A stretch of 64,000 bases of DNA from NCBI GenBank assembly GCA_003246455.1, contig QKAF01000027.1, forward strand, positions 33,201 to 97,200. The letters run 5' to 3'. The notes beneath the pieces are model-generated. The model had not been told where the DNA came from. It made no database searches and worked only from the letters and a program-made list of their open reading frames with translations. Positions within the stretch are counted from its first letter, which is position 1, and each line of letters opens with the position of its first letter. The translations under genes and the position numbers were made by a program. Source of the DNA: Bacteroidota bacterium. Its GTDB lineage: Bacteria > Bacteroidota > Ignavibacteria > SZUA-365. Shown one piece after another: positions 5,285 to 56,697 of the stretch.

Positions 5285-5357
5285 ACGCATAAAAACGATT
5301 TTTTTCGCACAGAGTTATCGTTTTTTCCTTGCGCAGGAGTGAGATTTGCTTTATCTT

Positions 5358-5380: not shown

Positions 5381-5383
5381 GTT

Positions 5384-16951: not shown

Positions 16952-18997
16952 ATGAACGCATGGTACAGGACCGTCGGGGTTTTCTCCCTTTTAGCGATAT
17001 TTCTGATTCAAAACGCCGCCGCTCAGGGCAACATCGACTGGGAGGAAGCTTGGAAACAGATGCCTCCCTTCGGACCGACGCCGCATCCCATGGCCTGGAT
17101 GAACGATTCCCTGTCCTACACCCGGCTGGCATACGACGAAACGCGCGACGTGCTGTACGTCGTGTCACCGCATCCAGCGGGGGGCGCGGGCTGGAGCGCG
17201 CCGGCAATCCACATCCTGGATCGACAGACCGGCCAACCGAGAATGGATATGGGACGCTCGGCCCATTTCGCGCGGCAGGGGCTGGGAGGAGAACTTCCCG
17301 TGCCGCTCGACACCTTCATCACAGTGAACAATAAAAACCTCGGCTTCGGAGATAACTGGTTCGCTCTCTACAGCATCGATGTGGACGAGGAGGGACGCAT
17401 CTATGCCTGCAATCTGGTCACGCCGGTCTGGGGTATCTGCAACCTTCTGCCCCAGGGCGGCTGCGACCCGATGTATCTCGGACAGGGACCTTTTCGCGTC
17501 TGGCGCTGGGATACCCCCACATCAACACCCGAACTGATCTATGCGACCTGTAACACGTCGCACACCGCGATCGGAAATATCAACTCGAGCGAAATGGCGT
17601 ATGCACGCTGGGGCGACACATTTTCCGTGACCGGGAAACGTGCGTGGTATCACCCCCCGCACGGCGGTCCCCCCGTCCTCGTTGACAGTACGCGCATCTA
17701 CGTGTCGGGGGGAGCCTCACCCGGCTCAGCGAATGGCCGCATCGCTGTCCTTCTCCCGGATGACCGCCCGGCGCCCCTGCGTCCAACACGTGATGTCATG
17801 GGAGGCGGAAACCTGAGTTTCAGGCTTGGTTTGCAGATCAACCTGCCCGCAAACTTTTTCGCCAACGGACTGGCTCCCGATCTGCTCACGGTTTCCGGGG
17901 ACACACTCGAACGGTGGATATGGCTTCAGAAGTACGGGCAAAACGTCATGAAAGTCCGGGAGCGACAGCTTCCCGGCGCACCCCTGCCGCAGACCCTTAC
18001 GCCGGCCGGCGGGGACGTCCTCATATACCCCGGCAGCTCGAGTCTTTTCGGTGCGAGCGGCGCGATGGAATTCATGCATCTCCCTCAATGGCAGCGCAGC
18101 TTCCTTGCGGTTGCCGACGGCCGTCCGACGGGAGGTTCGATTGTGTCGATTGCGAATGACAATACGACCGCACGATTCATAGATGTTACCGACTGGCGGG
18201 CTGCCTTCATGTTCTGGGGAGAGACGCCACAGCTCGGACAGGCGAATCAATGGTCCATCGAGCCGGATAATTATATCAGCGACGTGGATATGACGCTCTT
18301 CTATGACTCGGTGCACCCCGGACCGTACCCCCGGCTGCAGATGTTCGTGCTCATGACGAATAACGGCATTGCCTCATATCGCAGCAGGCCTCAATTTCCC
18401 GTGGAACTGCTGTCGCTCCGTGCACATCGCACGGCATCCGGGGCGGAAATTGAATGGACCGTCGCGGAGGAAGTGAACATCCAGCAGTACCAGGTGGAGC
18501 GGGGCGGGACGGAAAACGGCCCATGGGCGGTGGTCGGGACAGTCGCGGCGCGAGGCGGGACGGGGAACCTCTCGTATGCCATCGATGATGAAAATGCGGA
18601 GTGGAACGCGGGTCCTGCAGGCGACAAGGAACCGAGCGGGGGCATATGGTACCGTCTGACGGCGCTGCAATACGACGGATCGAAGCGGATATTCCCTCCC
18701 GTCATGGTGGAGCACACGGCGCAGCTTCTTCCGCTGCAGTGCGCGCTCTTCCCGCAGCCGGTTTCTTCGCAGGACGGTATGGTCTACCTGCGGCTGCAAT
18801 CGCCCGCAGCGGAGGATGTGTCGCTGCGCGTCGTCGATCTGCTCGGACAGGAAGTGCAGCCTGCACGCCAGTACACCGTCGGGGCAGGACGCACGCTTCT
18901 GCCGCTGCGGATCGGTGATGTTACGTCAGGGATTTATCTGATCGTCCTGAGAACGGGGAGCGGAGCGGTGCGAACGCAGCGCATGATCGTGCGTTAA
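16952..18997 (+). CDS. T9SS-type secreted protein (681 aa), paralog B of 14605..16650, divergently transcribed.
   Basis: Shared blocks QGNIDWEE, GRIxACNLVxPVWGICxLLPxGxCDPxYLGQGPFRVWRWD, INSSEM..RWGD. C-terminal CTD-like beta-sandwich ending LIVLRTGSGAVRTQRMIVR. Confidence 0.7.
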   Translation: MNAWYRTVGVFSLLAIFLIQNAAAQGNIDWEEAWKQMPPFGPTPHPMAWMNDSLSYTRLAYDETRDVLYVVSPHPAGGAGWSAPAIHILDRQTGQPRMDMGRSAHFARQGLGGELPVPLDTFITVNNKNLGFGDNWFALYSIDVDEEGRIYACNLVTPVWGICNLLPQGGCDPMYLGQGPFRVWRWDTPTSTPELIYATCNTSHTAIGNINSSEMAYARWGDTFSVTGKRAWYHPPHGGPPVLVDSTRIYVSGGASPGSANGRIAVLLPDDRPAPLRPTRDVMGGGNLSFRLGLQINLPANFFANGLAPDLLTVSGDTLERWIWLQKYGQNVMKVRERQLPGAPLPQTLTPAGGDVLIYPGSSSLFGASGAMEFMHLPQWQRSFLAVADGRPTGGSIVSIANDNTTARFIDVTDWRAAFMFWGETPQLGQANQWSIEPDNYISDVDMTLFYDSVHPGPYPRLQMFVLMTNNGIASYRSRPQFPVELLSLRAHRTASGAEIEWTVAEEVNIQQYQVERGGTENGPWAVVGTVAARGGTGNLSYAIDDENAEWNAGPAGDKEPSGGIWYRLTALQYDGSKRIFPPVMVEHTAQLLPLQCALFPQPVSSQDGMVYLRLQSPAAEDVSLRVVDLLGQEVQPARQYTVGAGRTLLPLRIGDVTSGIYLIVLRTGSGAVRTQRMIVR

Positions 18998-20931
18998 TCG
19001 ACGACCAGCTGCCGGATCTGCACGTCGCTGCCGCTGACAAGCTGAAGTGTATAGATGCCGCGTGAGAGTGCACGACCGTCAAACTGAATCGTGTGTGTCC
19101 CTGCGGTCAGATCGCCGCTGTGTATCATCGCCACCCGGCGGCCGAGGAGATCGCAGACGCAAAGCGAGGCGCGTAGGTTTCGGCCAGCTTCGAGGCGAAC
19201 GGCCAGCAGACCGTCCCGCTGCGGGGAGTAGGGGTGGGGATAGAGATCCGTCAGAAACACGTCCGGGCGCGGGACAGGGACGTCCTCGACGTTCACCGTG
19301 CGGTAGGAAAGCCGTTTGAGAACGATATTCCGCGGATCGAGGACGATATTCTTCACCTCTGTCGCGGGGATTTCGGGAAACGCGAATTCCTGCATATCGA
19401 CGGCGTCGGTGCTGATGCGCTTCCACAGCGTATCACCGGCATTGCGGATGATGATCAGATCCATCGGCATTCTGAAGAGAGGATACTTCGCCTGATCCTG
19501 CGTCTGGAGCAGGCGGACCCGGAGCGGCGCGCCGCTGTCATCGAGGACGCGCTGCAGCGTGTACTCCGGCCATCCGGCCGCGATCACCCATTCATCAAAG
19601 AACCACGCGAGATCCGCTCCGTGGAATTCTTCCATGACCTGACGGAGCGCACCGGTGGTCGCGTTTCCGTACGCATGGCGCTGGCCGTATGCACGAAGCC
19701 CGTCGAAAAAGTTCGCGTCACCCATGACGTCGCGAAGCATGGCCATCACGGCTCCGCCCTTGTGGTAGATCGTCGACGGGTAATTCGAGGAGGGAGCGGT
19801 TCGCGGGAAATCAAAGAGCGGGAAGACGCCCTCGTTGCGCGCATCGGAAATCCGATAGGTCTGGCCAGTGCTGCGAACGGCTTCGACATACGCGTCCGTT
19901 CCGCCAAGATGCTCGGCATACAGCATTTCGCTGAAAACGGCAAACCCTTCGTTCAGCCACACGTCGCGGAAGTCGGCACAGGTAACCCAGTCACCCCACC
20001 ACATGTGCGAAAGTTCGTGCGCCGCGGTCGTCCCTGCTTCGGAAAGGCCCGAAAACAGCTGCGCCGCGTAGCTGATCATCGTCTGGTGTTCCATCGATCC
20101 GATCGGGGTGATGCAGTACCCGATCTTGTCGAAGGGATACGCGCCGAAACGCTGCGTGAACACATCCATCATGCCGCCGACAGTGGCGAAATACTGCACG
20201 GCGCGCAGGGAATCCGCGCGGGGGACGTAGTACTGCATGGGGATGCCGTTCCACGCATCCTCGACGAGCGCGTAGTCGCTTATTGCGTAGGTGAAGAGAT
20301 AGGTGGCGGTCGGGTGATTCTCCGCCCAGCGCCAGGTGCTTCTGCCGCCGGCGGATGAATGGTCGACCATCAGCCCCGTGCCCGCGACGGTCATTCCGTC
20401 AGGCACGATGAAGGAGACGTCGAAGGTCGCCTTGTCGGCAGGGATGTCGTTTGACGGCAGCCACCGGCGCATCATCGATACGTCGGGATCGGTGAATCCC
20501 ACGCCCATGAAATACGTCACGCTGCCCCAGTGACAGCCGCCCCAGGGGAAGCTGCCGCCCTCGTTCCCGGGTGAACCCGAGTACTGGATCCGGATTTCCG
20601 TTGTGTCTCCCGGAGCGAGCGCCGCGGGGAGATCCACCGTGAGGACGATGCGATCATAGGTGTTGGGCGCAATCATCCCGTACACGAAGCTCTTTACCGT
20701 GGCCGTTTCCATATCAACCAGGTCGAGCGGAATCTGCTGCAGATCGCCGTTCGAAGCGTTGCGTATCGTGAGTGTCGCATCGCCGGTGATGCGATTCTGC
20801 GTGAGGTCGAAGTCGACCTCCGCGCGATAATGCACGACATCGATATCCGGCGACTCGGCGAGAAGCGGAAGGGGGCTCAGGAAAAGAACGAGGAGGATCT
20901 GGAGAATGCGCATGGCTGCAGGACTCTTCAT
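18994..20931 (-). CDS. M1-family zinc aminopeptidase with T9SS C-terminal sorting domain.
   Basis: HELSHMWWGD...NEGFA (HExxH-x18-E gluzincin motif). C-terminal CTD (HTIQFDGRALSRGIYTLQL...). Confidence 0.85.
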   Translation of the reverse strand: MKSPAAMRILQILLVLFLSPLPLLAESPDIDVVHYRAEVDFDLTQNRITGDATLTIRNASNGDLQQIPLDLVDMETATVKSFVYGMIAPNTYDRIVLTVDLPAALAPGDTTEIRIQYSGSPGNEGGSFPWGGCHWGSVTYFMGVGFTDPDVSMMRRWLPSNDIPADKATFDVSFIVPDGMTVAGTGLMVDHSSAGGRSTWRWAENHPTATYLFTYAISDYALVEDAWNGIPMQYYVPRADSLRAVQYFATVGGMMDVFTQRFGAYPFDKIGYCITPIGSMEHQTMISYAAQLFSGLSEAGTTAAHELSHMWWGDWVTCADFRDVWLNEGFAVFSEMLYAEHLGGTDAYVEAVRSTGQTYRISDARNEGVFPLFDFPRTAPSSNYPSTIYHKGGAVMAMLRDVMGDANFFDGLRAYGQRHAYGNATTGALRQVMEEFHGADLAWFFDEWVIAAGWPEYTLQRVLDDSGAPLRVRLLQTQDQAKYPLFRMPMDLIIIRNAGDTLWKRISTDAVDMQEFAFPEIPATEVKNIVLDPRNIVLKRLSYRTVNVEDVPVPRPDVFLTDLYPHPYSPQRDGLLAVRLEAGRNLRASLCVCDLLGRRVAMIHSGDLTAGTHTIQFDGRALSRGIYTLQLVSGSDVQIRQLVVD

Positions 20932-30455: not shown

Positions 30456-30555
30456 TCCCCAGTATTTCCGTGGGGTATCCGGAATCCAACATGATCCGCG
30501 GTGCCCCTTCCCCCCGCCTTCTGAGCGAAAAAATCGTATGTGAATCATTCGCACG

Positions 30556-30578
30556 TCGCGTGAATTTATTTCACGCGA
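30556..30578. promoter_or_regulatory. Inverted repeat TCGCGTGAA-tttat-TTCACGCGA inside an AT-rich island upstream of the motor-like cluster. Candidate operator.
   Basis: 9-5-9 perfect inverted repeat. The surrounding 30540-30700 is ~60% AT in a ~62% GC genome. Confidence 0.4.
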
Positions 30579-30601
30579 ATAGTGCGATAATCGGACACTT
30601 T

Positions 30602-30625
30602 GGCGTTTTTTTAAGTAAAAACGCC
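30602..30625 (+). terminator. Hairpin GGCGTTTTT-ttaagt-AAAAACGCC followed by a T-rich tract. Probable terminator of the epimerase gene.
   Basis: Perfect 9-bp stem, followed by GATTTTCATTT. Confidence 0.45.
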
Positions 30626-30699
30626 GATTTTCATTTGGCATGATTTGTGAACGATAATTAGCGATTGATTTAGCTCCTCACCATCTAGCCAACACGCAT

Positions 30700-31467
30700 T
30701 TGCTGAGTACATCAGAAACAGTCAAGGATCTCGAGGTATTCGAAGGCCGACGCCTGCTGCGCGACTTCTATCATGAGCGCAGAGTAAAGAATGCCATCGA
30801 GGCCAAGACGCTGCTCGAATGCTGGAAACTGTGCCGCCGGGGTACCGAGGTTCATTTCAGCGACGGACGGCGCGTTCGGCTGGAGACCAATCTCGGCGTA
30901 CGGCTGGGCACCCGCATTTTTCTCGAGGAGATCGTCAGCAGGAACCATTACAATTCCATCCAGGGGCTGGTGTACGCCGGCGCGATGATCGTCCTCCTGG
31001 CGGTTGCGATGTATCTCGCAGGGTATACGCTGTGGATCGCAATGGGGGCGTTTCTGCTCGAGGCGCTTTTCCTGCTGCTCCTGGCGATGGTGACGGCCTA
31101 CAGTCCCGTTGACGACACCGCCGCGAGCGGCGTCTCCCTGGGCCTGTCGGAGAATCTGCTGACCTCGATCAACAGTTCGATCCACGAAATGACCAACGCG
31201 GTATCAGATCTTTTTCGGCTGATCTCGCAGACGGATATCCGGCAGGATGTGCTGCTGACACGGCTCACCGAGAACATCAGCAAGCTCAACGCCGAAAACA
31301 CGCGCAAGTATTCCGAGAAGCTGGAGCAGACCAACGCGCTGCTGCGGGAGCTCAATGAGAATTCCCGCGCGCAGCTGCAGAGCATTCTCCAGCAGCAGCA
31401 GCAGTCGATGCAGCAGACGCGCCGCCTCATCGCCCTCATGGACCATAACGACGAGGAACCGGCATGA
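30700..31467 (+). CDS. GldL/PorL-like (ExbB/TolQ-superfamily-like) inner-membrane motor subunit, copy 1 (L1).
   Basis: Two adjacent TM helices (LVYAGAMIVLLAVAMYLAGY / WIAMGAFLLEALFLLLLAMVTAY) with a Glu in the second TM, matching the GldL VYGxGAA / G..EAL pattern. Long coiled-coil Q-rich cytoplasmic tail. The table start is a TTG. The true start is uncertain. Confidence 0.5.
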   Translation: MLSTSETVKDLEVFEGRRLLRDFYHERRVKNAIEAKTLLECWKLCRRGTEVHFSDGRRVRLETNLGVRLGTRIFLEEIVSRNHYNSIQGLVYAGAMIVLLAVAMYLAGYTLWIAMGAFLLEALFLLLLAMVTAYSPVDDTAASGVSLGLSENLLTSINSSIHEMTNAVSDLFRLISQTDIRQDVLLTRLTENISKLNAENTRKYSEKLEQTNALLRELNENSRAQLQSILQQQQQSMQQTRRLIALMDHNDEEPA

Positions 31468-31538
31468 CGGCCGCCGGCGCAGCCCCGGGTAACGCCGCCA
31501 TCAACAGTCCGCGCGGCCGCGCCGCGGAGGTTTGACGT

Positions 31539-33044
31539 GTGGCACAGCGGAAACGGATCGACATCTTCTTCATTCTCTACCTCACCGCGATACTCGGTTT
31601 CGTGGTTGTTTCGAGGGAACGCGATAAAATCGATGAAGGAATGCATGAACTGAACGAACAGATCGTCCGGACGTTTGTCCCCCCTGTTCCGCTGAGACCG
31701 GAGGGCGACACGCTGCGTTGCTATGTCGACGCCGATTCGAACGGCATCGTCATCGGCGACCCGCGGGTGTTCGAGACGAAAGTGTTCGCTGGCGACATCA
31801 CCCCGGACGATGCGGTTTCCCTCTCCCTGCACAGTGTCATTCACGACGGGACGCTGACCACGCCCGATATCGTCTCGATCGGACCGCGCACGGCCGCGGG
31901 CGAAATAGCCGACCAGGAAGTGTTTTTCCCCGTCACCGGACTGTTCCCGCGTACCGGCGTCTATCATGTCAACATCGCGGCGAAGGCCCGACGGGTGCAT
32001 GAAAGCAGCCCGGGCGTGTTCGTCTACCGCGGAAAGCAGTTTGACACGTCGCTCGTCAGCCGGGAGATGATCGCTTCGGTGGAACAGTCGCGGCTGACGA
32101 TGACCGTGGTCGTCGAAGACACCTCGCTCGATCATATGACCTCCCTCCAGAGCCTGCAGATCGAGGCGGCGCGTGCGGAGATCACCTCCGCGATCGGATT
32201 CGAAGAGCGCAACACAGTCACGATCAATCTCGGCTGGGCCGCGCCGACGATGACCATCGTGCGCGGGGGAGGGCAGCTTCGCGAACTCACCCGCACTGAT
32301 CGCATGGTGGAATATGTCTGGAGCGGCGCGGTCACGAGCATGCCGTATACCGTCGAGATCGAGGCGCGCGCGAACCGCGGCGCCGGCGGTCGGGACATTG
32401 CCCGCACGCGTTTTTCCGTGTCCGGAATTCAGCCGTTTCTGCGTATGGCTCCTCCCGACATGGTGTTCGCCGGGGAGGATATCAATTTCGATATCAGCGT
32501 CGAGGGACTCGATAATCCGGCCCAGTACAGCTGGCGGCTGTTCGAGGAAGTCGGGCAGGGAGAACCCCTGCTGAAAATGGAGGGGCGCGGTTCACGGGTC
32601 GCCTACCGTATCCCGAACTCCTACGCCGACAAGCATCTCGTGGTCGAGGCCCGGTATAACGGCCGTCCCTATCGTTTCATCTCCCGCGCGTCGTATGCCT
32701 CGGGCAGCTCCCGCTTTGCCCTGCCGGTTGTCGAACCGCCCACGCGCATCGGGCTGGACCTGCCCGCGCGCGCAGCCGCGACGGCATCGTTCCGTTTCAC
32801 CGCATCGAAATACAATGACATCCGTTTCCGCGGCGAGCAGCCGATCGACCGCCTCGCCGACGTGCAGGTGGAACTCACCAATGAGGAAGGGAACGTGCTC
32901 GCCTCGGACGTATGGATGATGCGGAAAGGAGAATTCGAGTTTTCGCTCGAAAATCGTACGTCCATCCGCAAAGGCGGAGAGAGAATTATCGTCCGGATTC
33001 ACGCCGGTGGAAACACCGCGCAGCGCAGCATTCAGCTGTATTAA
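31539..33044 (+). CDS. GldM/PorM-sized bitopic periplasm-spanning protein with an ExbD/TolR-like acidic TM residue, copy 1 (M1).
   Basis: 501 aa. N-terminus MAQRKRIDIFFILYLTAILGFVVV is a single TM resembling the ExbD/TolR IDV-hydrophobic motif. Followed by a ~450-aa periplasmic beta-rich region. Confidence 0.5.
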   Translation: MAQRKRIDIFFILYLTAILGFVVVSRERDKIDEGMHELNEQIVRTFVPPVPLRPEGDTLRCYVDADSNGIVIGDPRVFETKVFAGDITPDDAVSLSLHSVIHDGTLTTPDIVSIGPRTAAGEIADQEVFFPVTGLFPRTGVYHVNIAAKARRVHESSPGVFVYRGKQFDTSLVSREMIASVEQSRLTMTVVVEDTSLDHMTSLQSLQIEAARAEITSAIGFEERNTVTINLGWAAPTMTIVRGGGQLRELTRTDRMVEYVWSGAVTSMPYTVEIEARANRGAGGRDIARTRFSVSGIQPFLRMAPPDMVFAGEDINFDISVEGLDNPAQYSWRLFEEVGQGEPLLKMEGRGSRVAYRIPNSYADKHLVVEARYNGRPYRFISRASYASGSSRFALPVVEPPTRIGLDLPARAAATASFRFTASKYNDIRFRGEQPIDRLADVQVELTNEEGNVLASDVWMMRKGEFEFSLENRTSIRKGGERIIVRIHAGGNTAQRSIQLY

Positions 33045-33287
33045 CAGTACTGAGAAATAGAAAACATGTCTGACGGATTTGACTTGAATATGAAGATTGT
33101 GCGAGATTGTTGTGATAGTGAATGCGCGACAGCAACCCGCACGTCCTTTCGCCCTCGGACAAGAGCATTTCCCAATACGGCAGTTCATGCAACAACGCTT
33201 CAAATCGACACAGTACATATACAAATTAACAGTGTCCCGCTCCCGGCGGTGACAGCTCATCCTATGTCTTGTTAGGAGGTTTTCCTT

Positions 33288-34121
33288 ATGAAGAGTAGTG
33301 GATTCATTCGCCACCTGTTGCTCGGTACTCTGCTGATCGCAATCGTCACTGTTTTCGCGGCTCCGGTCGTGCACGCGCAGGGCGATGAAATGATGACGCT
33401 TGAGCAAATGAAAATGAAGCTGCGTGACGAAGGCAAGGGTCGCGACCTGAGCCAGCTCACGCATCAAGAGCTCGAGATGATCAAGAAAAGCGACAACGGA
33501 CTGTTCGGCAACCTGTTCAACACCGAATTCGTGATGAAGATCGGAAACTCCACCTTCATCCTGAACATGCTCGCAATCACACTCGTCATCGTCATCGCCG
33601 GGTTTGTCGTTCTCTTCTTCTTTACCCCCATCGGTCTGTTCCTCTTCAGGGGCAGTCTGCATGCCTTCGTCGGTGCGCTGCTGAAGGCATCCGGTGTCTC
33701 GAAGAAATTCGGCGATCACCTGATGAAGGAGCCGAAGAAGTGGCTGCAGAAAGAGAAGAGCGTCCGTCAGGCGTTCGCACTCTACATGCACAACGAATTC
33801 ATCCCCGAGTACAAGAACAACATCACCGCCATTGCCTTCATGGGTACGGCATTCCTTATTCTCAACATCGGTCTCCGCGGCGTGAAGTTCATGACCGCCC
33901 ACCAGCCTGACCTGATCGTTATCGCAATCGTCGTCGAAATCACCGTGCTCCTTCTGCTCGGTATGACGACCTGGTACGAGAAGGAAGAAGAAGAAGAAGC
34001 AGGCGCAGGTGCAGGCATGCCCGGGAAGCAGCTTTCGCTCGCCGACGTCGAACGTCGTCTCGATGCCCTCAAGGCAGAACTCGAGACTTCCGTTCGGACC
34101 GAATCCGGTCTCCGTCAGTAA
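33288..34121 (+). CDS. GldL/ExbB-like motor subunit paralog, copy 2 (L2), with an extra N-terminal signal/TM region.
   Basis: Last two TMs (AIAFMGTAFLILNIGL / LIVIAIVVEITVLLLLGMTTWY) are paralogous to the L1 TMs and include the TM Glu. There is an additional upstream TM, giving an ExbB/TolQ-like 3-TM topology. C-terminal coiled coil. Strong RBS ttaggagg. Confidence 0.5.
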   Translation: MKSSGFIRHLLLGTLLIAIVTVFAAPVVHAQGDEMMTLEQMKMKLRDEGKGRDLSQLTHQELEMIKKSDNGLFGNLFNTEFVMKIGNSTFILNMLAITLVIVIAGFVVLFFFTPIGLFLFRGSLHAFVGALLKASGVSKKFGDHLMKEPKKWLQKEKSVRQAFALYMHNEFIPEYKNNITAIAFMGTAFLILNIGLRGVKFMTAHQPDLIVIAIVVEITVLLLLGMTTWYEKEEEEEAGAGAGMPGKQLSLADVERRLDALKAELETSVRTESGLRQ

Positions 34122-34168
34122 GCAGTTCGCGGACTATGCCAATCAGTAAGAAGAAGGAGTAAGCAACA

Positions 34169-35776
34169 ATGGCTCATACTGCCGACCACTATAAAAAATA
34201 CCAGGTTTACTTCTTCCTGTATCTGGCTGTGATCTGCGAGCTTCTCATCATCATCGTGGAACGCGATGATGCGGAAGCCGACCTGCTTATGCAGCAGCGG
34301 ATGCTGGAAGAAAAGAATCGTAAGATCATTCTCGAGCTCCTCAAGAACATGCCCGCGGTGGCCGCGGCCGGTGACAACCAGCTGAAGGTCAACGAAGAGC
34401 GCAAGTTCACGATCAACGTGAAGGGTCTTGGCGAGAACGATGAAGTGACGACGCCCCCGGAAGTCAAGGTGTTCAAGGACGGTACCGAGATGGGTACCCT
34501 CAAGTACCCGCAGGACATCCAGGATTCCATCGTGCACGGCACGACCGGCGAACGTCTCTATCGCTTCACATGGAAGGCCGAAAGCGGTCCCGGCACCTAC
34601 GAACTGTGGGTGCAGGCCGGAACCAACCGCGTGTCCCTGACTCCGGATCTCGAGCAGGGCGAGGCGAAAATCAAGGTCGGAACGCTCGAATTCTCCCGCA
34701 AGGAGATCCGCTCCGCTCTCGATTCCGACCCGGATCTTCGCGGAACGCCGGTGGAGCACTTCATCGAGAAATCGGAAAATCTGATGCCCGATAAATTCGT
34801 TGTCGAAGTGGTTTCCGAGGAATACGATCAGCTGCAGATTCAGGCAGATCCGATCGTGACCGCCGTCGGCTTCCCGACCTTCAACGAAATCAAGGTTCGC
34901 GGTACCACCGTGGACAAGATCTCCAACATGAATATCGTCGGCGGCGGCGTCGCCCTGCGTCCTGACAACCAGCGCAACCCGTATTACAGCCCGGATCCCG
35001 AGCGCGGCAAGTGGGTGTGGTCCAACACCTACAATGACGCCGGCACGAAGTCCGTCAGTGTCGATGCGCGTGACAACCGCTCCGCGGGCGTCAAGAGCGT
35101 TTCCCGTCCCATCAGCTTCGATGTCATCGTGAAGGAGCCGTACCTGAGCCGCCGCAAACCGAGCGGTGCGTTTTCCGGCGAAATCTTCGAAATGAACATC
35201 AACGTCGCCGGTCTCGAAGACGTCGGTTCCTACGACTGGACCATCGAGATCGACAACGCGCAGGTGGAGAAGGGCAAAGGCAACGTGGTCAAGTACAAGG
35301 TGCCGGAAGATGCGCTGGGCAAGACCTTGACCATCAAGTCAACCTACAGGAACCGGGTGTACCAGGTACTGGTCGATTCTTCAGCGACGAACCTGACCTC
35401 TTCCGAATTCCTGTTCAACATCACCGCCCCTATCGACCGAATTGGATCGCAGTCCTTCGCGAATGGCGGCGAATACCCGATCAATAACGTCTTCCAGTTT
35501 GTCGCAGCCCGCTGCGGCCGGTGTATCGGATCCAATATCCGTAACATCCAGCCTTCCGACATCCGTGTGGAAGTGGAATCTGAAGACGGTCAGGATCTGC
35601 TTGCCGATACTCCCGAGGTTTTCCAGCGGACGAACCCGAATACCGGGGCAGACCAGGGCAGCCTTGTGAAATTCTATCTGAAGGGCAAAGTCGGCCGCGA
35701 CGGAACCGAGGCGACGATCACAATCCGTTACGGTGCCGTCAATGAGCGTTACACGGTCATGCTCTATCAGGAGTAA
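34169..35776 (+). CDS. GldM/PorM-sized bitopic periplasm-spanning protein, copy 2 (M2).
   Basis: 535 aa. N-terminus HYKKYQVYFFLYLAVICELLIIIVERDD is a single TM containing Glu. Large periplasmic region with Ig-like beta repeats. Confidence 0.5.
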   Translation: MAHTADHYKKYQVYFFLYLAVICELLIIIVERDDAEADLLMQQRMLEEKNRKIILELLKNMPAVAAAGDNQLKVNEERKFTINVKGLGENDEVTTPPEVKVFKDGTEMGTLKYPQDIQDSIVHGTTGERLYRFTWKAESGPGTYELWVQAGTNRVSLTPDLEQGEAKIKVGTLEFSRKEIRSALDSDPDLRGTPVEHFIEKSENLMPDKFVVEVVSEEYDQLQIQADPIVTAVGFPTFNEIKVRGTTVDKISNMNIVGGGVALRPDNQRNPYYSPDPERGKWVWSNTYNDAGTKSVSVDARDNRSAGVKSVSRPISFDVIVKEPYLSRRKPSGAFSGEIFEMNINVAGLEDVGSYDWTIEIDNAQVEKGKGNVVKYKVPEDALGKTLTIKSTYRNRVYQVLVDSSATNLTSSEFLFNITAPIDRIGSQSFANGGEYPINNVFQFVAARCGRCIGSNIRNIQPSDIRVEVESEDGQDLLADTPEVFQRTNPNTGADQGSLVKFYLKGKVGRDGTEATITIRYGAVNERYTVMLYQE

Positions 35777-35839
35777 TCGGTCGTTCGCCTATCATTCATA
35801 CGCGAAGTGGAATATTCAATTCGATTAGAGGATAAGTTC

Positions 35840-37885
35840 ATGAGCAAACAATTTCTTTTACGTGCCTTTCTCTTCGTGGCACTCGTTGTAGGCCTCATGC
35901 CGCAGCTTTTTGCTCAGACCGACCGTGAGGTAAAGAGCAAACAGACGGATCTGAAGCACGAATACAACGACGCCTCTGAGAAAAACCAGATCATCAAGTC
36001 GGCGGCAGAGGACAAGCCGCGTGCGACGACCGGCCGCCGGCGCAGTTCGGCCACGACCGGTTACGATTACACGCAGGTGAAGGGATTTGCCCTTCGCCAG
36101 TTCAACGATCGCATCGACAAGGTGTTCGCCCGCGCCAACGATCTCGGCCTGTTCGAGGAAGAGTACCGTCTCGACGGTACCTTCCCGGTCCCCGGCCGCC
36201 AGGGCAAGGGCAGCGCGCAGATGCGCAAAATCGAGGTGTACTACGTCGAAGCAACGCCCGAGGAACAGGAACAGTTCGATATCGAGCCGTTCCAGATCAT
36301 CGAGGTGTATGTGGAAAAGCTGGAAACCCTGCCGCCTGAGGAAACCGCGGGCGAAACGGAAGAAGGCGGTCTCGGCCTCGGCTTCGACGCAAGCGCGTCC
36401 GAGCCGATCGCAAAGGGATATTCCCTTGCCGGAACCGATCTGACCAGCGTCCTGCAGCTTGCCGACGAAGCACTGTATGACGATATCCTTGCGAAGCGCA
36501 GCCAATCCAATCCGATTCCGCTTCCGGAACGCGGCGACTGGATGCCCGGCAAGGTCGGTCCTTTCATCGTCATGACCCAGCGCGAACTGGAAACCACCAC
36601 GAGTCGTTTCCGTGACTTCTGGAACATGCGCGATACGCTTGAAAGCGCGATCATCCCGCCGCAGTTCGAAGCGGCCGGTCCTTTCTATACCGGCAGCATT
36701 CCGATGTTCTACCCGGAAGCGAGCAAGGTGCGTGTCCGCAACCCGGAACGCAATCAGCCGCTGAAGATCACCAGCGCCGTCTTCGTTGGCGACAATGCCG
36801 ACAAGTGGGAAATCCGCACCAAGCTTCCGAAGGTTCTCGCCGGCAAGGGCGAAGCCAATGACAAGGAAGACATCGAATTCGCCTATATCGGCGGATCGGA
36901 ATACGAAACCCGCGGACAGCTGCTCATCGACGCAAAGGAAGCCAACCTCCAGCAGATCGTCGAGATCGTGTCCAACCCCGGACGGTATCCGGCCGACGTC
37001 GTGACGCTCGATGCGTCGCTCGACCGCGTCGAACTCCGCTCGCCCGCACGTTCCGGCTTCGCCCCGAACTGGAAGCTGGCCTATGTCATCGGCAACGATG
37101 AAGTCGGTCTGCCTCGCTGGTCCACGGGCATTTCCTCCCTCAGCGTGGGATACAAGAATCAGATGAGCGTCGGCGTCGTGCTTCCGATGAACATGACGGC
37201 TCCCGACCTTCCGACGCCGCTGGCGTTCGAGAAGAACCTGATGTCGTCGCCGAGCGGTTACAACGTCGCCTTCGATTTCACGTTCGGCTTCCCCTTCTCC
37301 CTCGGCGGAAACCTGACGGTCATCAACGATTATTCCGCGCAGGATGCGTACGATCACCTGAAGGTCATGCATATGAACTTCGATCCGCAGGTTGACCTGA
37401 AAGACTATGACAACGATTTCTTCCATATCTCCACGATCGCGCAGGTGTACTACCCGATCATGTTCAAGGATAATGCGGTCAATCCCAGTCTCGCATTCCG
37501 TCTGAACCTTGGTGGTGCCTTCATGCAGATCAAGCGAGATCACCTGGTCACCGATGCAGATCCGCTCGGCATGGGCAAGGAAGGCCGCATCTTCAAGACC
37601 GAAGAGATCGGCAAAATGGTCACGCTCGGCAAGGAAAAAGATCTCGTAGACGTGTACATTCGCATGTCCTTTATCAATCTGCGTTCCGCCAACAAGTACG
37701 GCATGGGCATTCAGTATTTCGCCGGCCGCATGATGGCGGATGCCTTCCTTGAACTCACCGAATGGCTGCGCGTGGACGCGAAGTACTCCTTCCTGCTCCG
37801 CGACCAGGAGATCTGGGAGACCGAAAGCAGTTACTTCCTCATCACTCCGCGCCTGCGTATCGGGCTGCCCTCCATTTTTAACTGA
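35840..37885 (+). CDS. Putative outer-membrane beta-barrel protein (OMP-A, ~680 aa).
   Basis: Signal peptide MSKQFLLRAFLFVALVVGLMPQLFAQ. C-terminal alternating hydrophobic beta-strands ending ...RLRIGLPSIFN. C-terminal block paralogous to the next gene. Confidence 0.45.
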   Translation: MSKQFLLRAFLFVALVVGLMPQLFAQTDREVKSKQTDLKHEYNDASEKNQIIKSAAEDKPRATTGRRRSSATTGYDYTQVKGFALRQFNDRIDKVFARANDLGLFEEEYRLDGTFPVPGRQGKGSAQMRKIEVYYVEATPEEQEQFDIEPFQIIEVYVEKLETLPPEETAGETEEGGLGLGFDASASEPIAKGYSLAGTDLTSVLQLADEALYDDILAKRSQSNPIPLPERGDWMPGKVGPFIVMTQRELETTTSRFRDFWNMRDTLESAIIPPQFEAAGPFYTGSIPMFYPEASKVRVRNPERNQPLKITSAVFVGDNADKWEIRTKLPKVLAGKGEANDKEDIEFAYIGGSEYETRGQLLIDAKEANLQQIVEIVSNPGRYPADVVTLDASLDRVELRSPARSGFAPNWKLAYVIGNDEVGLPRWSTGISSLSVGYKNQMSVGVVLPMNMTAPDLPTPLAFEKNLMSSPSGYNVAFDFTFGFPFSLGGNLTVINDYSAQDAYDHLKVMHMNFDPQVDLKDYDNDFFHISTIAQVYYPIMFKDNAVNPSLAFRLNLGGAFMQIKRDHLVTDADPLGMGKEGRIFKTEEIGKMVTLGKEKDLVDVYIRMSFINLRSANKYGMGIQYFAGRMMADAFLELTEWLRVDAKYSFLLRDQEIWETESSYFLITPRLRIGLPSIFN

Positions 37886-37899
37886 AAGGAGGCAGCACC

Positions 37900-39612
37900 A
37901 TGAAGAACCACACAGTATCAAGCACGGAACAACACGGCATGCAGATGAAAAACCGACTTCTTTCGATTCTCGCAGCACTTCTCGTTCTCGCCTGGCTCGC
38001 TCCCAATGCGGCACAGGCCCAGAGCTCGGATGATGCCCTGACGAGCGTCGAGCAGATCATGCGATACATGAAGAGCGCGAATTACTCGGAAGACGATATG
38101 CTCCAGCGCATGGCCTGGGGCGACCAGATCGTCAACGAACTCGTTTCCTTCAAGGCGTCTGAAGACGATCGTCAGAACTATCTCCGTCTTCTCGATATCG
38201 CCATCGATCATTACAAGGACGAGAACGACCGCCTCCGCATTCTTCTGCGTGCGCTCACCACCCTCGATCCCCTGGTGGCGAAGTACTTCCCGCAGTGGGT
38301 GATCCAGGACGAACCGATGATTCTCGAAGTCATGCGCAAGGTCCGTGATAACCGCGACGATCTGCTCGATGCGGACGCCGTCGGTATCGCCGAGCGCGTG
38401 CTCACCGGCAAGGCCCGGATGCGCGTCATCCAGAGCCCGAAAGACGATCAGAACCTGATCGCCATCTACATCGAAAAGGCGCGTCCCCATGACGACGAAA
38501 AGCTTTCTGCCGGCTTCCTGCCGAACAAGGACAACGGCGATTTCGACGACTATCGTATCGTCGGCCGCCGCAACCTTCGTGAGATCCTCACTCCGGACCT
38601 CTACGACGCAGTGGTCGCCAAGCAGTCGTATGCGCATCTCGACGAAACGGGCGCGGTCAAACCGCAGCCGTACGTTGCCGAAGCGACGATCAGCGTTCCT
38701 TTCGGCGGTGGTTTCATGTGGACCCTGGATTCGGACGAGCGCATCGGCGACGGCGTCACGCTGCAGCCTTCGCGCATCCGCGCCGGGTTCGAACTGAAAA
38801 TCGGCAACGACTGGGTGAACCTGCCGTTCCTGTACGGCGCGCAGTGGAATACGCTGTTCGTCTACGAGCCGTCCGCTACCGAGCGGGTCAAGATCGGTCC
38901 GTCCATTCCCTTCACCTGGGGTGACAAGAGCATCTCGGAGAATTTCCCGATCTTCAAACCGCGTACCCTCAACGGGACGTGGGGCGCGGCCGGTGAATAC
39001 TACAAGCAGCTCTCCAACGTCGCGGGCGCACCGGGCGTGGACGCAGACGGAATCGGCGCCGCCGCCTTCGTCTCCTTCGGCCTGAAGACCCTCGGCAACA
39101 AGAAGATCACCAACCTCGACGGTACCATCATCAACGGCGACGGTGCGGAAGCCGCGCTGCAGCTGCCGCTGACCCCGGCGGATGCCCAGAAAGCGCATTT
39201 CTACTACCTCGCGAATTCCGCGAACCTGTTCTACTGGCGTGACCTCGGCTTCATGCTCAGCGGTCTCCGCCTGCATGCCGGTCTCGGATATCAGAAGACC
39301 GTCGAAGCCGTTCGCCAGAATCCGTTCGACCAGCCCAACCAGTCCGCATGGAATCCTGACAGCGTCAGCATCGTCAGCGACAACAGCGTCCTGGATGCGT
39401 TCGTGCGCCTTTCCTACGATCACGGCGGCAAGACCACGTACGGCGTGGCGCTGCAGTATTTCAACGGCGGCGTGATGGGCGAGGTGTACCTCAACATCTT
39501 CAGCTGGATGCGCGCGGAAGTCAAGTACTCGCGCATGCTGTTCCGCGATCCGGAAGTCTGGGAACACGAAGAAATGATCGTGCCCGGCCTTCGCTTTGGC
39601 TTCGCATTCTAA
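37900..39612 (+). CDS. Putative outer-membrane beta-barrel protein (OMP-B, 570 aa), paralog of OMP-A.
   Basis: RBS aaggagg. Signal peptide ...LAWLAPNAAQAQ. C-terminus ...WMRAEVKYSRMLFRDPEVWEHEEMIVPGLRFGFAF ends in Phe (beta-signal). Aligns with the OMP-A C-terminus WLRVDAKYSFLLRDQEIWETESSYFLITPRLRIGL. Confidence 0.45.
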   Translation: MKNHTVSSTEQHGMQMKNRLLSILAALLVLAWLAPNAAQAQSSDDALTSVEQIMRYMKSANYSEDDMLQRMAWGDQIVNELVSFKASEDDRQNYLRLLDIAIDHYKDENDRLRILLRALTTLDPLVAKYFPQWVIQDEPMILEVMRKVRDNRDDLLDADAVGIAERVLTGKARMRVIQSPKDDQNLIAIYIEKARPHDDEKLSAGFLPNKDNGDFDDYRIVGRRNLREILTPDLYDAVVAKQSYAHLDETGAVKPQPYVAEATISVPFGGGFMWTLDSDERIGDGVTLQPSRIRAGFELKIGNDWVNLPFLYGAQWNTLFVYEPSATERVKIGPSIPFTWGDKSISENFPIFKPRTLNGTWGAAGEYYKQLSNVAGAPGVDADGIGAAAFVSFGLKTLGNKKITNLDGTIINGDGAEAALQLPLTPADAQKAHFYYLANSANLFYWRDLGFMLSGLRLHAGLGYQKTVEAVRQNPFDQPNQSAWNPDSVSIVSDNSVLDAFVRLSYDHGGKTTYGVALQYFNGGVMGEVYLNIFSWMRAEVKYSRMLFRDPEVWEHEEMIVPGLRFGFAF

Positions 39613-39739
39613 CGCGAACGCCTTTTCGAACGATTGACATACGTGCAGGCGGTGGACACATCCCATCGCCTGCACATGTTTTTAACCGTGATTTTTTCGA
39701 CAAGGTGGAACCAGCCCGCGATTCAATCCGTTCCGTTCA

Positions 39740-41119
39740 TTGAAACCGCGTGCCGAATCAAGCGTTATGCCCGTTAATACGTTCGTTCCATTATACATTG
39801 TCATCGCCGTTCTTCTCGCCCTGCCGGGAGGGCAGGACCTGTACTCCGCGCCCCAGGCGACAGGGATCCAGCCGGGCGACAGCCTGCGCAAACCGACCAT
39901 CATCTCCGCTCGCAGCAAACACCCCGAAGCCGTTACCGTCTCCATCCGCGCCGTCGACATCAGCCGCTACCCCGAGGTCAGCGTCATTCTCGATGCGCGC
40001 GACTCACTCGGAAATCACTTCCCGAGCCTGAGGAAGAGCGACATGGTGATCTACCAGGACAGCGCGCCGGTGGAAGTGGAATCGCTCGAGAAGATTTCCG
40101 CGAACAACAGTTTCCCCGTCGATATTGCGTTCATCATCGATCAGACGGGAAGCATGTCGCAGGAGGTCTACGAAGTCAAGGCCAACATCATTGATTTCAC
40201 GCAGCGCCTTGCATCCCGCGGAGTGGACTATCGTCTCGCGCTGCTGACATTCAGCGACCGGATCGAACGCTACAAGGATTTCACCGAGGACGTGAAAACC
40301 TTCATCGGATGGATCGACGGGCTGAAGATCGGCGGGGGGATGGACGACAACGAGAATGCGCTGGAAGGGATGTTCGAAGCCACGTCATTCAAATTCCGTC
40401 AGAGTGCGCAGAGGATCTTCATCCTCATCACCGACGCGATGTTCCATCAGAAAGGGGACAAGGGGTACGGGAAAACCGATTTTACCGCGAAGACGATGAC
40501 GGACTTCCTTCTCAAACAGAACATCAAGCTCTTCGCAATCACTCCGCCGCAGATCTCTGAATACAAGTACATGACCGAGGCGACCCGAGGAAAGCGCTTC
40601 AACATCATCGAAGATTTCAGTTCCATCCTCGACGAATTCAGCGAGTCGCTGACGAATCTCTACGCCATCCGGTATCACATCACCGAGGAAGTCCCTCCGG
40701 AAAAAATGAACCTGGAGATTCGCAACTCCCAGGACGAGGTCGTGCTGCAGGAAGAGGTCACCGTGCTCGACGTCGACAAGAAATTCGTGCTGGAGAACAT
40801 CCTGTTCGATTTCAATCGCGCCACCTTCGATATGTCCTATACCGACGAATTGAAGAACATTCTCGCGATGCTGCGCAAGTACGAGAACATTCACATCGAG
40901 ATCCGCGGACACACCGATTTCATCGGAAGCGACGAGTACAATATCGCGCTCTCCGACGCACGCGCCCGCGCAGTGAAGAAATACCTTGTGGACCGCGGTA
41001 TCGGCGAGATGCGGATAACGACGCGCGGCATGGGGAAATCGCAGCCCATCGCGCCAAACGACACCGAACTCGGCCGCCGTCTCAATCGTCGTACGGAAGT
41101 CATCATCACGCGGAAGTGA
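39740..41119 (+). CDS. vWA-domain protein with C-terminal OmpA-like peptidoglycan-binding domain.
   Basis: MIDAS motif DIAFIIDQTGSM...T...D (vWA). C-terminal NILFDFNRATF...HIEIRGHTDFIGSDEYNIALSDARARAV...TRGMGKSQPIAPNDTELGRRLNRRTEV (OmpA_C). Confidence 0.8.
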   Translation: MKPRAESSVMPVNTFVPLYIVIAVLLALPGGQDLYSAPQATGIQPGDSLRKPTIISARSKHPEAVTVSIRAVDISRYPEVSVILDARDSLGNHFPSLRKSDMVIYQDSAPVEVESLEKISANNSFPVDIAFIIDQTGSMSQEVYEVKANIIDFTQRLASRGVDYRLALLTFSDRIERYKDFTEDVKTFIGWIDGLKIGGGMDDNENALEGMFEATSFKFRQSAQRIFILITDAMFHQKGDKGYGKTDFTAKTMTDFLLKQNIKLFAITPPQISEYKYMTEATRGKRFNIIEDFSSILDEFSESLTNLYAIRYHITEEVPPEKMNLEIRNSQDEVVLQEEVTVLDVDKKFVLENILFDFNRATFDMSYTDELKNILAMLRKYENIHIEIRGHTDFIGSDEYNIALSDARARAVKKYLVDRGIGEMRITTRGMGKSQPIAPNDTELGRRLNRRTEVIITRK

Positions 41120-50354: not shown

Positions 50355-50852
50355 ATGCAAGCGCAGACGCAAGATAAATACACGCTAACCTTCTGGGAGA
50401 AGCTCTACATTCCCGAGATTCTCAAAGGGATGAAGCTGACGTTCGGCCAGATGGTGAAGAAGAAAGACACCCGCGAGTATCCCGAAGAAAAGTGGATTCC
50501 GCCTGCATCATACCGCGGTGCGCCCGTCCTCGTGCAGGAGGAAAACGGCATCGAGCGCTGTGTCGCCTGCGGACTCTGTTCGCGGGTCTGCCCCGCGCTC
50601 GCGATCGAGGTGCAGGCCGCGGAAACCGCGGATGAGAAAGAGCGCTATCCCGAGCGTTTCGAGATCAACATGCTTCGCTGCATTTTCTGCGGATTCTGCG
50701 AAGAAGTGTGTCCCGAGGAAGCGATCGTCATGAGTCCCACCTACGAAATGGTGTTCACCGACTACGAAGACGCCATTCTCGGAAAGGATAAACTGCTCAC
50801 GCCGGTGGAGAAGCTTCGTCCCCGCCTTGAATTTCTCCGCGAGCACCGTTAA
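50355..50852 (+). CDS. nuoI: NADH-quinone oxidoreductase subunit I (2x[4Fe-4S]).
   Basis: CVACGLCSRVCP and CIFCGFCEEVCP motifs. Confidence 0.9.
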   Translation: MQAQTQDKYTLTFWEKLYIPEILKGMKLTFGQMVKKKDTREYPEEKWIPPASYRGAPVLVQEENGIERCVACGLCSRVCPALAIEVQAAETADEKERYPERFEINMLRCIFCGFCEEVCPEEAIVMSPTYEMVFTDYEDAILGKDKLLTPVEKLRPRLEFLREHR

Positions 50853-50862
50853 TCGCATCCCG

Positions 50863-52635
50863 GTGGCCTCCGCGGTTCCCCGCATATATCGATTTCTGGT
50901 AATATCGTCCCTTCTCGGGGCGATATTCCTTTTTCATGGCTGTCTCAGTCTCATCGACGGTATTATCATTCCCGCCCAGGTCAGTCTCGATCAGGAATTC
51001 CTGGTCGCGGTGGACGGCTCCGTGATCGGACACGGGGGCGGAATGGCAGGGCTTGTGGTCCAGGTGCCGGAGAGTTTCGAATTCCTGGGAGCGACGTACG
51101 TCACCTCGTCCGCCAGAAGGGTGCTTCGCCGAAACGGAAACGTGGCCGCGCGCTATCGCGCCGAGAAGGGACACGTGGTGATCGCGGTGGGAGACAGCAT
51201 TCCCTCGAGCAGGGAAACCGACGCGGACGTCCGTGTGCTGCTGCGCTTCGTGCCGAAACAGGCAGGACCTTTTACCGTCAAGTTTGCCAGCGGCGTCGTC
51301 GTCATGCAGAACGGCCGTCTTGCGTGGCGGAGCACGGATCCGGCGGATCTCCGGGATTTCGGCGAGTTGACGGACGAGCGCCTCGTGCGCACGCTGCAGG
51401 TGGTGTACGCGGAGCGGAACGGGACGGCGGCCATCGAACTGGCCGGAAACCGCCAGCATCTGCTGTGTCCCGACAGCGGGCTTTTCCGTCTGCCGCTCGA
51501 CCGCGATTTCACCATCGAGACCTGGTGTGCGACCGTTTCGACAGATGCGCCGCTGATCAGTTCGCGTCCTGACGATTTCAACACGGCCTTCCCGTTCGAA
51601 CTGCGCATATCATCATGGGGAGAAGCGCAGGTGCGCTGTGCCGACGGGCACCACTCGTGGTCGAGTGAGCGGGGGCCTTTCATCGCCGACGGAATGTGGC
51701 ATCATCTTGCGGTCTCATGGTGCAGCGACAGTCTCCGCTACGTGCTCTACGTCGACGGCCACGCGGCAGATACGCTCGCGGTCCCTGAACTGATGCGGGG
51801 AGTTTCCGCAGACCAGCTCGTCATCGGGACAAATCTTCCCCGCACCCAGTTCGTCCGTGCGTCGTTCGACGAACTTCGTCTGTGGGAAACCTGTCGCAAC
51901 GAGCAGGAAATAGCGTATTACCGCGACCTCGCCCTGAGCGGATACGAAACCAACCTCTACGTGCTCTTTTCGTTCGATAACGGGACAGACGGGCACATCG
52001 CCGGGCAGTCGCAGCTCGACAGCCTGTGGCTCTTCGCGTACAACAAACCGCGCCTGGTCGTTTCCACCACGCCGCTGCGCATCGAGCTTCTTGCATTCAA
52101 TGCGGTTCTCGACGAAGACAGCGTCCGGATGAGCTGGGAGACCTACGACGAATCGAAGGTTCGCGGATACGAGGTCGAGAAGCGGCTCGAATCGGGAAAG
52201 TACACCGTGATACATCACATCGAGCCGCTGCGGACGGCGGAACGGCATCAGGAGTACGCCGTCACCGACAACTGGCGGGGGCGCGAAATCGCTTACTACC
52301 GGCTGCGGAAGCTCAATACTGACGGGACCGTTCTGTTTTCCGAGGAGGTCCCGATCGGCACGGAGACCATCCTGAATTTCGTGCTGGAGGACAACGTGCC
52401 GAATCCGTTCACCGAGAGCACGGAAATCCGCTACACGCTGTCGAAGCGCACGCGTGTCGACCTCACCGTGTACGACATCATGGGCAGTGAAATCCGGGTG
52501 CTGGTTTCGGAACGGCAGGAGGCCGGCAGTTACACCGTCGCCTTTGACGGGAGCGATCTTCCGGGCGGGATGTATTTTTACAAAATGCGTACAAGTACTG
52601 GTTCCCAAACAAAAAAGATGTATCTTGCCAAGTGA
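50863..52635 (+). CDS. LamG/concanavalin-A-like-lectin-domain protein with T9SS C-terminal sorting domain.
   Basis: Probable GTG start (VASAVPRIYRFLVISSLLGAIFLFHGC). The LamG-like block contains WHHLAVSW. CTD LEDNVPNPFTESTEIRYTL...GMYFYKMRT. The table ORF start inside nuoI is rejected. Confidence 0.55.
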   Translation: MASAVPRIYRFLVISSLLGAIFLFHGCLSLIDGIIIPAQVSLDQEFLVAVDGSVIGHGGGMAGLVVQVPESFEFLGATYVTSSARRVLRRNGNVAARYRAEKGHVVIAVGDSIPSSRETDADVRVLLRFVPKQAGPFTVKFASGVVVMQNGRLAWRSTDPADLRDFGELTDERLVRTLQVVYAERNGTAAIELAGNRQHLLCPDSGLFRLPLDRDFTIETWCATVSTDAPLISSRPDDFNTAFPFELRISSWGEAQVRCADGHHSWSSERGPFIADGMWHHLAVSWCSDSLRYVLYVDGHAADTLAVPELMRGVSADQLVIGTNLPRTQFVRASFDELRLWETCRNEQEIAYYRDLALSGYETNLYVLFSFDNGTDGHIAGQSQLDSLWLFAYNKPRLVVSTTPLRIELLAFNAVLDEDSVRMSWETYDESKVRGYEVEKRLESGKYTVIHHIEPLRTAERHQEYAVTDNWRGREIAYYRLRKLNTDGTVLFSEEVPIGTETILNFVLEDNVPNPFTESTEIRYTLSKRTRVDLTVYDIMGSEIRVLVSERQEAGSYTVAFDGSDLPGGMYFYKMRTSTGSQTKKMYLAK

Positions 52636-52923
52636 AATTCTCGGGGAAAATAGGACGTACCGCGGTACACCCGTGTGCTGTTTTCCCGCAGAAAAACAGC
52701 TTGACATTCGTAGCCCCCGTGGTTAATTTTATCTTTATTATACTTACATGACGTTTATTTGCGGAGATGCAGCAACAATATTTCGGAGAAGCGAATGTTT
52801 GGGACTCCCGTTTCAATCATTCTTCATGGCGCATCTTCGCCGACATGCTGAATCTGCGAGCGATACAAGTAAAGTGATGAACCATATCAGCTCAATTATT
52901 CCCCAACTGCCAGGAGGTATTTC

Positions 52924-56658: not shown

Positions 56659-56697
56659 GCGGCGGATTCCCCGCATACTAGACAGGAACAGCTGATT

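Follow-up and report, generated by a model that had tools for sequence, protein, structure and literature searches.

A conserved seven-gene cluster of the Ignavibacteria encoding a candidate ion-driven envelope machine with GldLM as its nearest relative

Seven adjacent genes in a 64,000-nucleotide stretch of a Bacteroidota genome (class Ignavibacteria, lineage SZUA-365; assembly GCA_003246455.1, contig QKAF01000027.1, positions 33,201 to 97,200 of the forward strand; hereafter the window) make up a coherent, conserved, and undescribed system that is built like known ion-driven envelope machines and whose nearest relative is GldLM. We label the genes, in order, L1, M1, L2, M2, B1, B2, and VO (for VWA-OmpA, gene 7; Table 1). 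In Pfam and NCBIfam searches VO alone was recognised, and the other six proteins had no family match apart from a weak signal of the L1 tail to TIGR03513, the curated GldL model. The literature searched, the coverage of which was incomplete, held no description of such a cluster, nor of a type IX secretion system (T9SS) without GldKLMN in this group.

In our reading the cluster is a variant, specific to this lineage, of an ion-driven envelope machine of the GldLM type and is probably connected with the T9SS or with gliding; we consider this reading to have about an even chance of being right. The L1-M1 and L2-M2 inner-membrane pairs would be ion-driven motors of the GldLM kind, with the L subunits conducting protons through a hairpin that resembles that of GldL and buries a glutamate, and the M subunits forming the axle, composed of a membrane helix, a stalk helix, and four immunoglobulin (Ig)-like domains that cross the periplasm. 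The distal ends of M would act on the B1 and B2 barrels, which bring their own periplasmic domains, and VO would fasten the assembly to peptidoglycan. The job of the whole would be that of GldLM with PorK/N elsewhere in the Bacteroidota, namely to power type IX secretion, surface gliding, or both, the canonical genes having been lost from the class or never having been present in it. Such a role is the likeliest one that we can assign, at roughly even odds. More tentatively, the cluster could be a second, independent energising core for the T9SS or gliding, in which duplicated GldL-like motors and axles engaging the periplasmic domains of the barrels replace the PorK/PorN ring or the GldJ/K track.

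The L and M proteins

A preliminary description of this DNA, made from the sequence alone, had given both L proteins a two-helix hairpin with a conserved glutamate. Hairpin and glutamate are indeed present in both and are GldL-like, but L2 is not a simple two-helix protein. L1 begins with a conserved cytoplasmic N-domain (residues ~1-85), continues with a hairpin at 89-131 (helices at 89-107 and 113-131 by hydropathy, the second bearing Glu120), and ends in a coiled-coil tail. L2, also by hydropathy, opens with a signal-like helix at 10-28 and a periplasmic segment; a further helix at 94-112 leads into a cytoplasmic loop, after which come a hairpin at 178-227 and an acidic coiled-coil tail. 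Alignments of the relatives of L2 place an invariant Glu217 within the hairpin. The two proteins show no similarity by BLASTP; their profiles are related (96%, E 3e-9 by hhalign), the hairpin being the sole related part, and a third, longer type of L matches both in profile comparison (97% against L1 and 99.6% against L2).

Kinship with GldL emerges from the same kind of comparison. Canonical GldL was represented by 11 sequences encoded in gldKLMN operons elsewhere in the Bacteroidota. Against these the L1 family (27 sequences) scores 89% with E 2.2e-6 over 55 hairpin columns (hhalign), and reversed-GldL controls score 0.1-0.3%. The sole invariant residue of the joint alignment is a glutamate, aligned on Glu49 of GldL, and a G-A-A motif falls on the G-A-A of GldL. 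This helix-2 glutamate is kept in 40/40 L2-type and 24/27 L1-type sequences, and helix 2 of L is followed by an acidic patch similar to GldL E59. In GldL, Glu49 is strictly conserved and essential, and a second acidic residue just past helix 2 is required for gliding (PMC8986121). Judged from these alignments, L is probably a remote relative of GldL.

The proposal that L is ExbB-like and M is ExbD-like found no support in comparison with those families: neither L protein matches PF01618, neither M protein matches PF02472 (ExbD/TolR), and the L1 and L2 profiles reach 0.1-1.4% against 31 ExbB/TolQ sequences (hhalign). L and ExbB may still share a fold, since GldL itself scores about zero against ExbB/TolQ. 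Profile searches of the PDB with L1 and L2 gave nothing significant, GldL chain 7sax_C appearing at E 5.7 only, and a Protein Atlas feature search gave no usable match for either. A predicted complex of four copies of L2 (residues 80-277) and two of M2 (residues 1-62) had ipSAE values of 0.01 and 0.05, where the mark is 0.32; this 4:2 prediction, run without controls, counts neither for nor against L-M binding.

The two M proteins are paralogous (E 2e-21 by BLASTP, 99.9% by hhalign) and, as first described, bitopic proteins of about 500 residues, each with a single N-terminal helix. In M1 the membrane helix lies at 7-25 by hydropathy and is followed by a beta-rich periplasmic part. The AlphaFold2 model of M2 (pLDDT 89.3) shows a membrane and stalk helix at 9-59 and four beta-sandwich domains at 61-176, 208-322, 339-420, and 423-533. 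A C-G-R-C motif in the last of these Ig-like domains (residues ~448-454, window ~35510-35530) is kept in M2-type proteins of the same order and occurs neither in M1 nor in distant M2-type proteins. M1 has no Pfam or NCBIfam match, and the M family as a whole comprises 607 representatives at E <=1e-3 among 1.84 billion.

The membrane helix is the best-conserved part of M, and its charges distinguish the two types. All 82/82 M2-type N-termini carry a mid-membrane glutamate (Glu24 in M2), the E-R-D motif that follows is invariant or nearly so, and a lysine stands 8 or 6 residues before the tyrosine of an L-Y-L motif. The M1-type N-termini (n=24) have no mid-membrane glutamate; an Asp or Glu stands 6 residues before the tyrosine, and in 20/24 an arginine stands 8 residues before it, a spacing equal to that of GldM Arg9 from M-Y-L in 11/11 sequences, in an alignment that has no statistical support. 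M1 itself has both the Arg (Arg6, 8 residues before the tyrosine) and the Asp (Asp8, 6 before it, near the cytoplasmic end of the helix). The preliminary description, in which the M helix was acidic and did not have the arginine of GldM, thus fits M2 and its mid-membrane glutamate but not M1, which does have an arginine at that distance. Arg9 of GldM has been proposed to pair with GldL Glu49 in a salt bridge (bioRxiv 10.1101/2022.01.28.478170). With an arginine at the Arg9 register in M1-type proteins, L1-M1 would therefore show the charge pattern of GldLM, whereas L2-M2 has a glutamate on both partners.

Set beside GldLM and PorLM, the pairs share an L hairpin with a conserved helix-2 glutamate, an acidic patch, and a cytoplasmic coiled-coil tail; a next gene for a bitopic protein of ~500 residues with a conserved N-terminal helix and an Ig-rich part that spans the periplasm; the M1-type arginine, at what is probably the Arg9 register; and a host with SprA, PorV, a PorU-like gene, and many cargo proteins bearing the C-terminal domain (CTD) of T9SS substrates. 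They differ in that the curated models are not reached, that M has no detectable homology to GldM and is without its helical first domain, that the pair is duplicated here and occurs a third time outside the cluster, that L1 has an extra N-terminal domain and L2 an extra helix and periplasmic segment, that M2 has a mid-membrane glutamate, and that the neighbouring genes are two barrels and VO here and GldK and GldN there.

The barrels and the VWA-OmpA protein

B1 and B2 are predicted outer-membrane barrels and paralogs of each other, as the preliminary description had proposed; the paralogy extends over their full length (100% by hhalign in 414 columns) and is seen by BLASTP at the C-terminus (E 7e-14). 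B1, whose true start is likely the ATG at 35840, combines a signal peptide (hydropathy) with a predicted N-domain in the periplasm and, C-terminally, a predicted beta-barrel in the outer membrane. The AlphaFold2 model of B2 (pLDDT 80) comprises a signal peptide, a helical domain at ~50-170, an alpha/beta domain at 173-250, and a barrel of 14 strands at 260-569 that ends in a C-terminal Phe. With VIA-align, B2 scored Z 14.0 against OmpG, 13.4 against a FadL homologue, 13.3 against chain 6h3i_F (a T9SS translocon entry), and 11-12 against accessory barrels of the Bacteroidota beta-barrel assembly machinery, scores that are all effectively tied; Foldseek matched it to porins and FadL, and an Atlas fold search matched it to porin-like clusters (TM 0.3-0.55). 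Its layout of helical domain plus barrel recalls the export porins BcsC, PelB, and PgaA (Z 8-10, VIA-align). Exopolysaccharide export, suggested by this layout together with an epimerase gene upstream, was dropped as a candidate function, there being no synthase in the conserved core and a terminator-like hairpin cutting the epimerase off.

Neither barrel protein matches any Pfam or NCBIfam model, the PorV model NF033710 included, and when the two are compared by hhalign with GldK and GldN alignments, nothing beyond the signal peptide is matched. In the SprF-GldK track model, outer-membrane barrels are mechanically coupled, through disulfides, to a periplasmic structure driven by an inner-membrane motor (PMC12635249). 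B1 and B2 are comparable to SprF with its GldK track, and to the PorK/PorN ring with PorG, in joining a barrel and a periplasmic domain, here in one chain encoded right after M; they have no similarity to PorK, PorN, PorG, or SprF. Coupling by disulfides as in SprF-GldK cannot apply to B1 and B2 because neither sequence contains a cysteine.

VO is a secreted protein with a signal peptide, a beta-rich N-terminal segment, a VWA domain at 128-295, and an OmpA-like peptidoglycan-binding domain at 355-450, in agreement with the earlier call of a VWA plus OmpA protein. Both domains exceed the Pfam gathering score (VWA 3.8e-11, 44.0 bits; OmpA 2.8e-21, 76.1 bits), and the OmpA-type models of NCBIfam match the C-terminal domain only. 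As in B1 and B2, the signal peptide is the sole hydrophobic helix (hydropathy).

VWA, OmpA, and Ig-like domains are common among structural and adhesive envelope proteins, and the motor activity and stoichiometry that we assign to the L-M pairs are inferred. Both points would suit a passive tether or adhesion complex in which the Ig-like domains of M, the barrels, and VO link inner membrane, wall, and outer membrane with no energy transduction and with charged residues serving assembly only. We think this improbable. The buried glutamates of the L hairpin (40/40) and of the M2 helix (82/82) are invariant, and such charges speak against a mere tether because they are costly unless functional; in addition, the L hairpin is similar to that of GldL, and L and M come strictly in pairs and in the same genomes.

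Conservation, type IX secretion, and competing functions

Relatives within the family and the order repeat the full series L1-M1-L2-M2-B1-B2-VO. In the class at large M-B-B returns, with VO often but not always adjoining, and lone L-M pairs are also seen. The gene arrangement is far from chance. Profiles of L and of M each detect 55/121 class genomes with identical family tallies, and the B profile detects 55/121, a set that differs from that of L and M by two genomes. The relatives' records are metagenome-assembled genomes labelled Bacteroidota, Ignavibacteria, or Candidatus Kapaibacterium. Flagella, scored by FlhA, and the system occur together in 9 of the 121 genomes, with 46 having the system only, 25 flagella only, and 41 neither; the trend is negative but weak, the genomes are related, and we do not use it.

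The source genome itself has three pairs in which an L and an M gene are neighbours. The third, on contig C59 (L020:531-2958), is without barrels; its L3 has ~317 residues by longest open reading frame (ORF), its M3 has 495 residues and is 41% identical to M2, and a CTD-bearing gene follows after ~2.6 kb. Contig C91 carries on its minus strand (L145:6550-7695) a fourth L-like gene, of 381 residues, and in a close relative (L153) an AAA_16 ATPase gene follows the counterpart of that gene.

Type IX secretion is well represented in the source genome, which is 98% complete and has SprA, at least 150 CTD tails, and PorV above cut-off (C47:17083-18123) beside a PorU-like gene (C47:14602-18123 for both). 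The SprA gene is split over the ends of contigs C12 and C103, which looks like an assembly break and not like a broken gene. The PorU-like gene and PorV are on the cluster's own contig, ~47-50 kb upstream of the cluster and ~15-19 kb before the window start. GldL, GldM, GldK (TIGR03525), and GldN (TIGR03523) were not found in the genome by curated hidden Markov model search. In the class, SprA is present in 119/121 genomes and CTD tails in 121/121, nearly every genome having dozens to hundreds of them, and GldK, GldL, and GldM rise above cut-off in 0/121, with positive controls in other classes working as expected.

It is very unlikely that the cluster is an ordinary gldKLMN core that looks odd through sequence divergence only, a reading that is already refuted at the level of membership. 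A small membrane protein, a bitopic protein of ~500 residues, and further genes do follow one another as in gldL-gldM-gldN; however, the GldK, GldL, GldM, and GldN models all stay below cut-off. L1 reaches 12.6 bits (E 0.092, tail only) with TIGR03513, the cut-off of which is 68.3 bits; L2 does not match that model; M1 and M2 match neither TIGR03517 nor PF12081; and none of the seven proteins has a CTD, GldK, or GldN match in Pfam or NCBIfam. Moreover, hhalign of M, B1, and B2 against GldM, GldK, and GldN alignments gives nothing, B1 and B2 are predicted integral barrels and not a lipoprotein and a periplasmic ring protein, and the motor pair is duplicated. In these respects, and in the absence of matches to Ton, Tol, and Mot models, the cluster is as distinct as the preliminary description had claimed.

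Outside the cluster, L-like genes are found next to a T9SS component. In 12/12 genomes examined from four other families (loci L146, L149, L194-L201, L205, L206), the best L-like gene (442-506 residues) immediately precedes, in the same orientation, a gene for a PorU-like sortase of 1800-1900 residues (Peptidase_C25; NF033707 at 1e-60). This adjacency is not seen in another family (L152, L154, L202-L204).

A number of results weigh against a GldLM-type machine that serves the T9SS. The link between L and GldL consists of a profile score that is moderate and confined to a membrane hairpin: hairpin-only comparisons with GldL score lower (32-47%, E 2-5e-4), and L2 alone is not significant at 2.6% (hhalign). 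A kinship of M with GldM was undetectable, with hhalign giving 0.2-3% for full-length and N-terminal alignments and no sequence relation; the M2 model is without the helical first domain of GldM; and fold searches with M2 return generic Ig, PKD, CopC, and MG matches (a Protein Atlas feature search gave weak Ig-like leads only). GldM and PorM are not among the top rows of these fold searches, which does not exclude them. The cluster has no flanking T9SS genes within the window. Most directly, 66/121 class genomes have SprA and many CTD cargo proteins and none of L, M, or B, so T9SS in the class is not generally dependent on this system; a joint profile of the GldL and L hairpins finds nothing in 5 of these 66 genomes, and the number of CTD cargo proteins does not track the presence of the system. 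The earlier proposal of a divergent T9SS or gliding core is weakened by these 66 genomes, which carry T9SS parts without the system.

Absence from about half of the T9SS-bearing genomes is what one would see for an accessory transporter, and the main rival to our reading is a separate, energised outer-membrane transport role. The L-M pairs would exert force on the parts of B1 and B2 that lie in the periplasm and so gate or power a channel by which some substrate is taken up or exported, in the manner of Ton and independently of the T9SS, with VO as a wall-anchored stator. We regard this as possible, at clearly less than even chances. The likeness of the B2 barrel to FadL, OmpG, and porin-type channels and of its layout to BcsC, PelB, and PgaA would fit such a role, as would the lack of T9SS genes around the cluster and the mid-membrane acidic residue of M2. 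ExbD, TolR, and MotB have an acidic residue in their membrane helix. Further resemblances to ExbB-ExbD-TonB and TolQ-TolR-TolA-Pal are the order of segments in L2 (N-terminus out, helix, cytoplasmic loop, hairpin with a glutamate in the last helix) and an outer-membrane barrel partner, joined in Tol-Pal by an OmpA-like wall anchor. However, the sole detectable relative of L is GldL and not ExbB/TolQ, L-like genes stand beside PorU-like sortase genes in four families, and the conserved core has no substrate-related gene such as a synthase, a binding protein, or a TonB box partner. The ~500-residue M proteins with their Ig-like domains resemble neither the ExbD fold nor the TonB/TolA rod, and the source genome already has two ordinary ExbB/ExbD sets elsewhere, both PF01618 genes lying on another contig.

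The proposed GldLM-type machine also has an analogue outside the phylum. In the Agl-Glt gliding machinery of Myxococcus, a TolQR-type motor is coupled to a complex that spans the envelope and has paralogous outer-membrane barrels among its parts. Myxococcus belongs to another phylum and homology is not expected, so this likeness is one of analogy only.

Locus and implications

All seven ORFs are on the plus strand and span 30700-41119 with intergenic gaps of 14-243 nt, as expected from the co-oriented and tightly spaced cluster first described. They are real genes by their third-position GC of 0.73-0.79, typical of such genes in a window with 59% GC. The cluster had been given a start at 30540, but coding begins at 30700, where L1 starts with a TTG and an N-terminus that is conserved across 25 homologs in alignment; 30540-30699 is intergenic and outside the coding region. 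The AT-rich stretch in front of L1 (30501-30750, minimum GC 0.37) had been taken for the only one in the window. It is not unique, because it is one of ~8, others lying at 5251-5500, 16601-16825, 52601-52925, and elsewhere (minimum GC 0.36-0.43).

Table 1. Features of the seven-gene cluster, in window coordinates
Feature	Position	Strand	Description
AT-rich intergenic region before L1	30456..30699	+	GC 0.37-0.47; presumed promoter region of cluster
L1	30700-31467	+	255 aa
M1	31539-33044	+	501 aa
L2	33288-34121	+	277 aa
M2	34169-35776	+	535 aa
B1	35807-37885	+	692 aa as called
B2	37900-39612	+	570 aa
Stem-loop between B2 and VO	39643-39675	+	13 pairs, 9 G-C, then T-run
VO	39740-41119	+	459 aa

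Upstream of the cluster is a gene for an NAD-dependent epimerase, whose transcription unit is closed by a terminator-like hairpin at 30600-30627 inside the AT-rich gap; downstream come a UPF0047 gene, which runs in the opposite direction, and a gene for a RecD2 helicase. A scan of 30456-30699 for the sigma-70 consensus, which did not cover Bacteroidota-type promoters, found none. The G+C-rich stem-loop between B2 and VO may be a terminator or attenuator and hints at separate or attenuated expression of VO. Terminator-like sites in the region are no commoner than in shuffled sequence, and this one has the strongest stem. The sequencing runs listed as containing the locus are of DNA, two of them perhaps from the source sample, and none is of RNA.

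Large secreted proteins that are likely T9SS cargo are encoded elsewhere in the window, at 14605-16650 (-), 16952-18997 (+), 18994-20931 (-), 50827-52635 (+), 52924-56658 (+), and 56696-58081 (+), with Por_Secre_tail matches at 14617-14844, 18749-18994, 52399-52620, 56386-56595, and 57833-58072.

Six of the seven proteins fall outside described families, and the cluster that they form is a concrete candidate for the missing T9SS energy module in about half of the class. In the other half, ~55% of the sampled class genomes, neither L, M, and B nor recognisable GldK, GldL, and GldM were found, which leaves their T9SS with no known energiser and no motor candidate. If the motor reading is true, the L and M proteins would represent a new branch of ion-driven ring-and-axle motors, with an unusual glutamate on both partners of the L2-M2 pair, and the barrels that accompany them would represent a new way to couple such a motor to the outer membrane.

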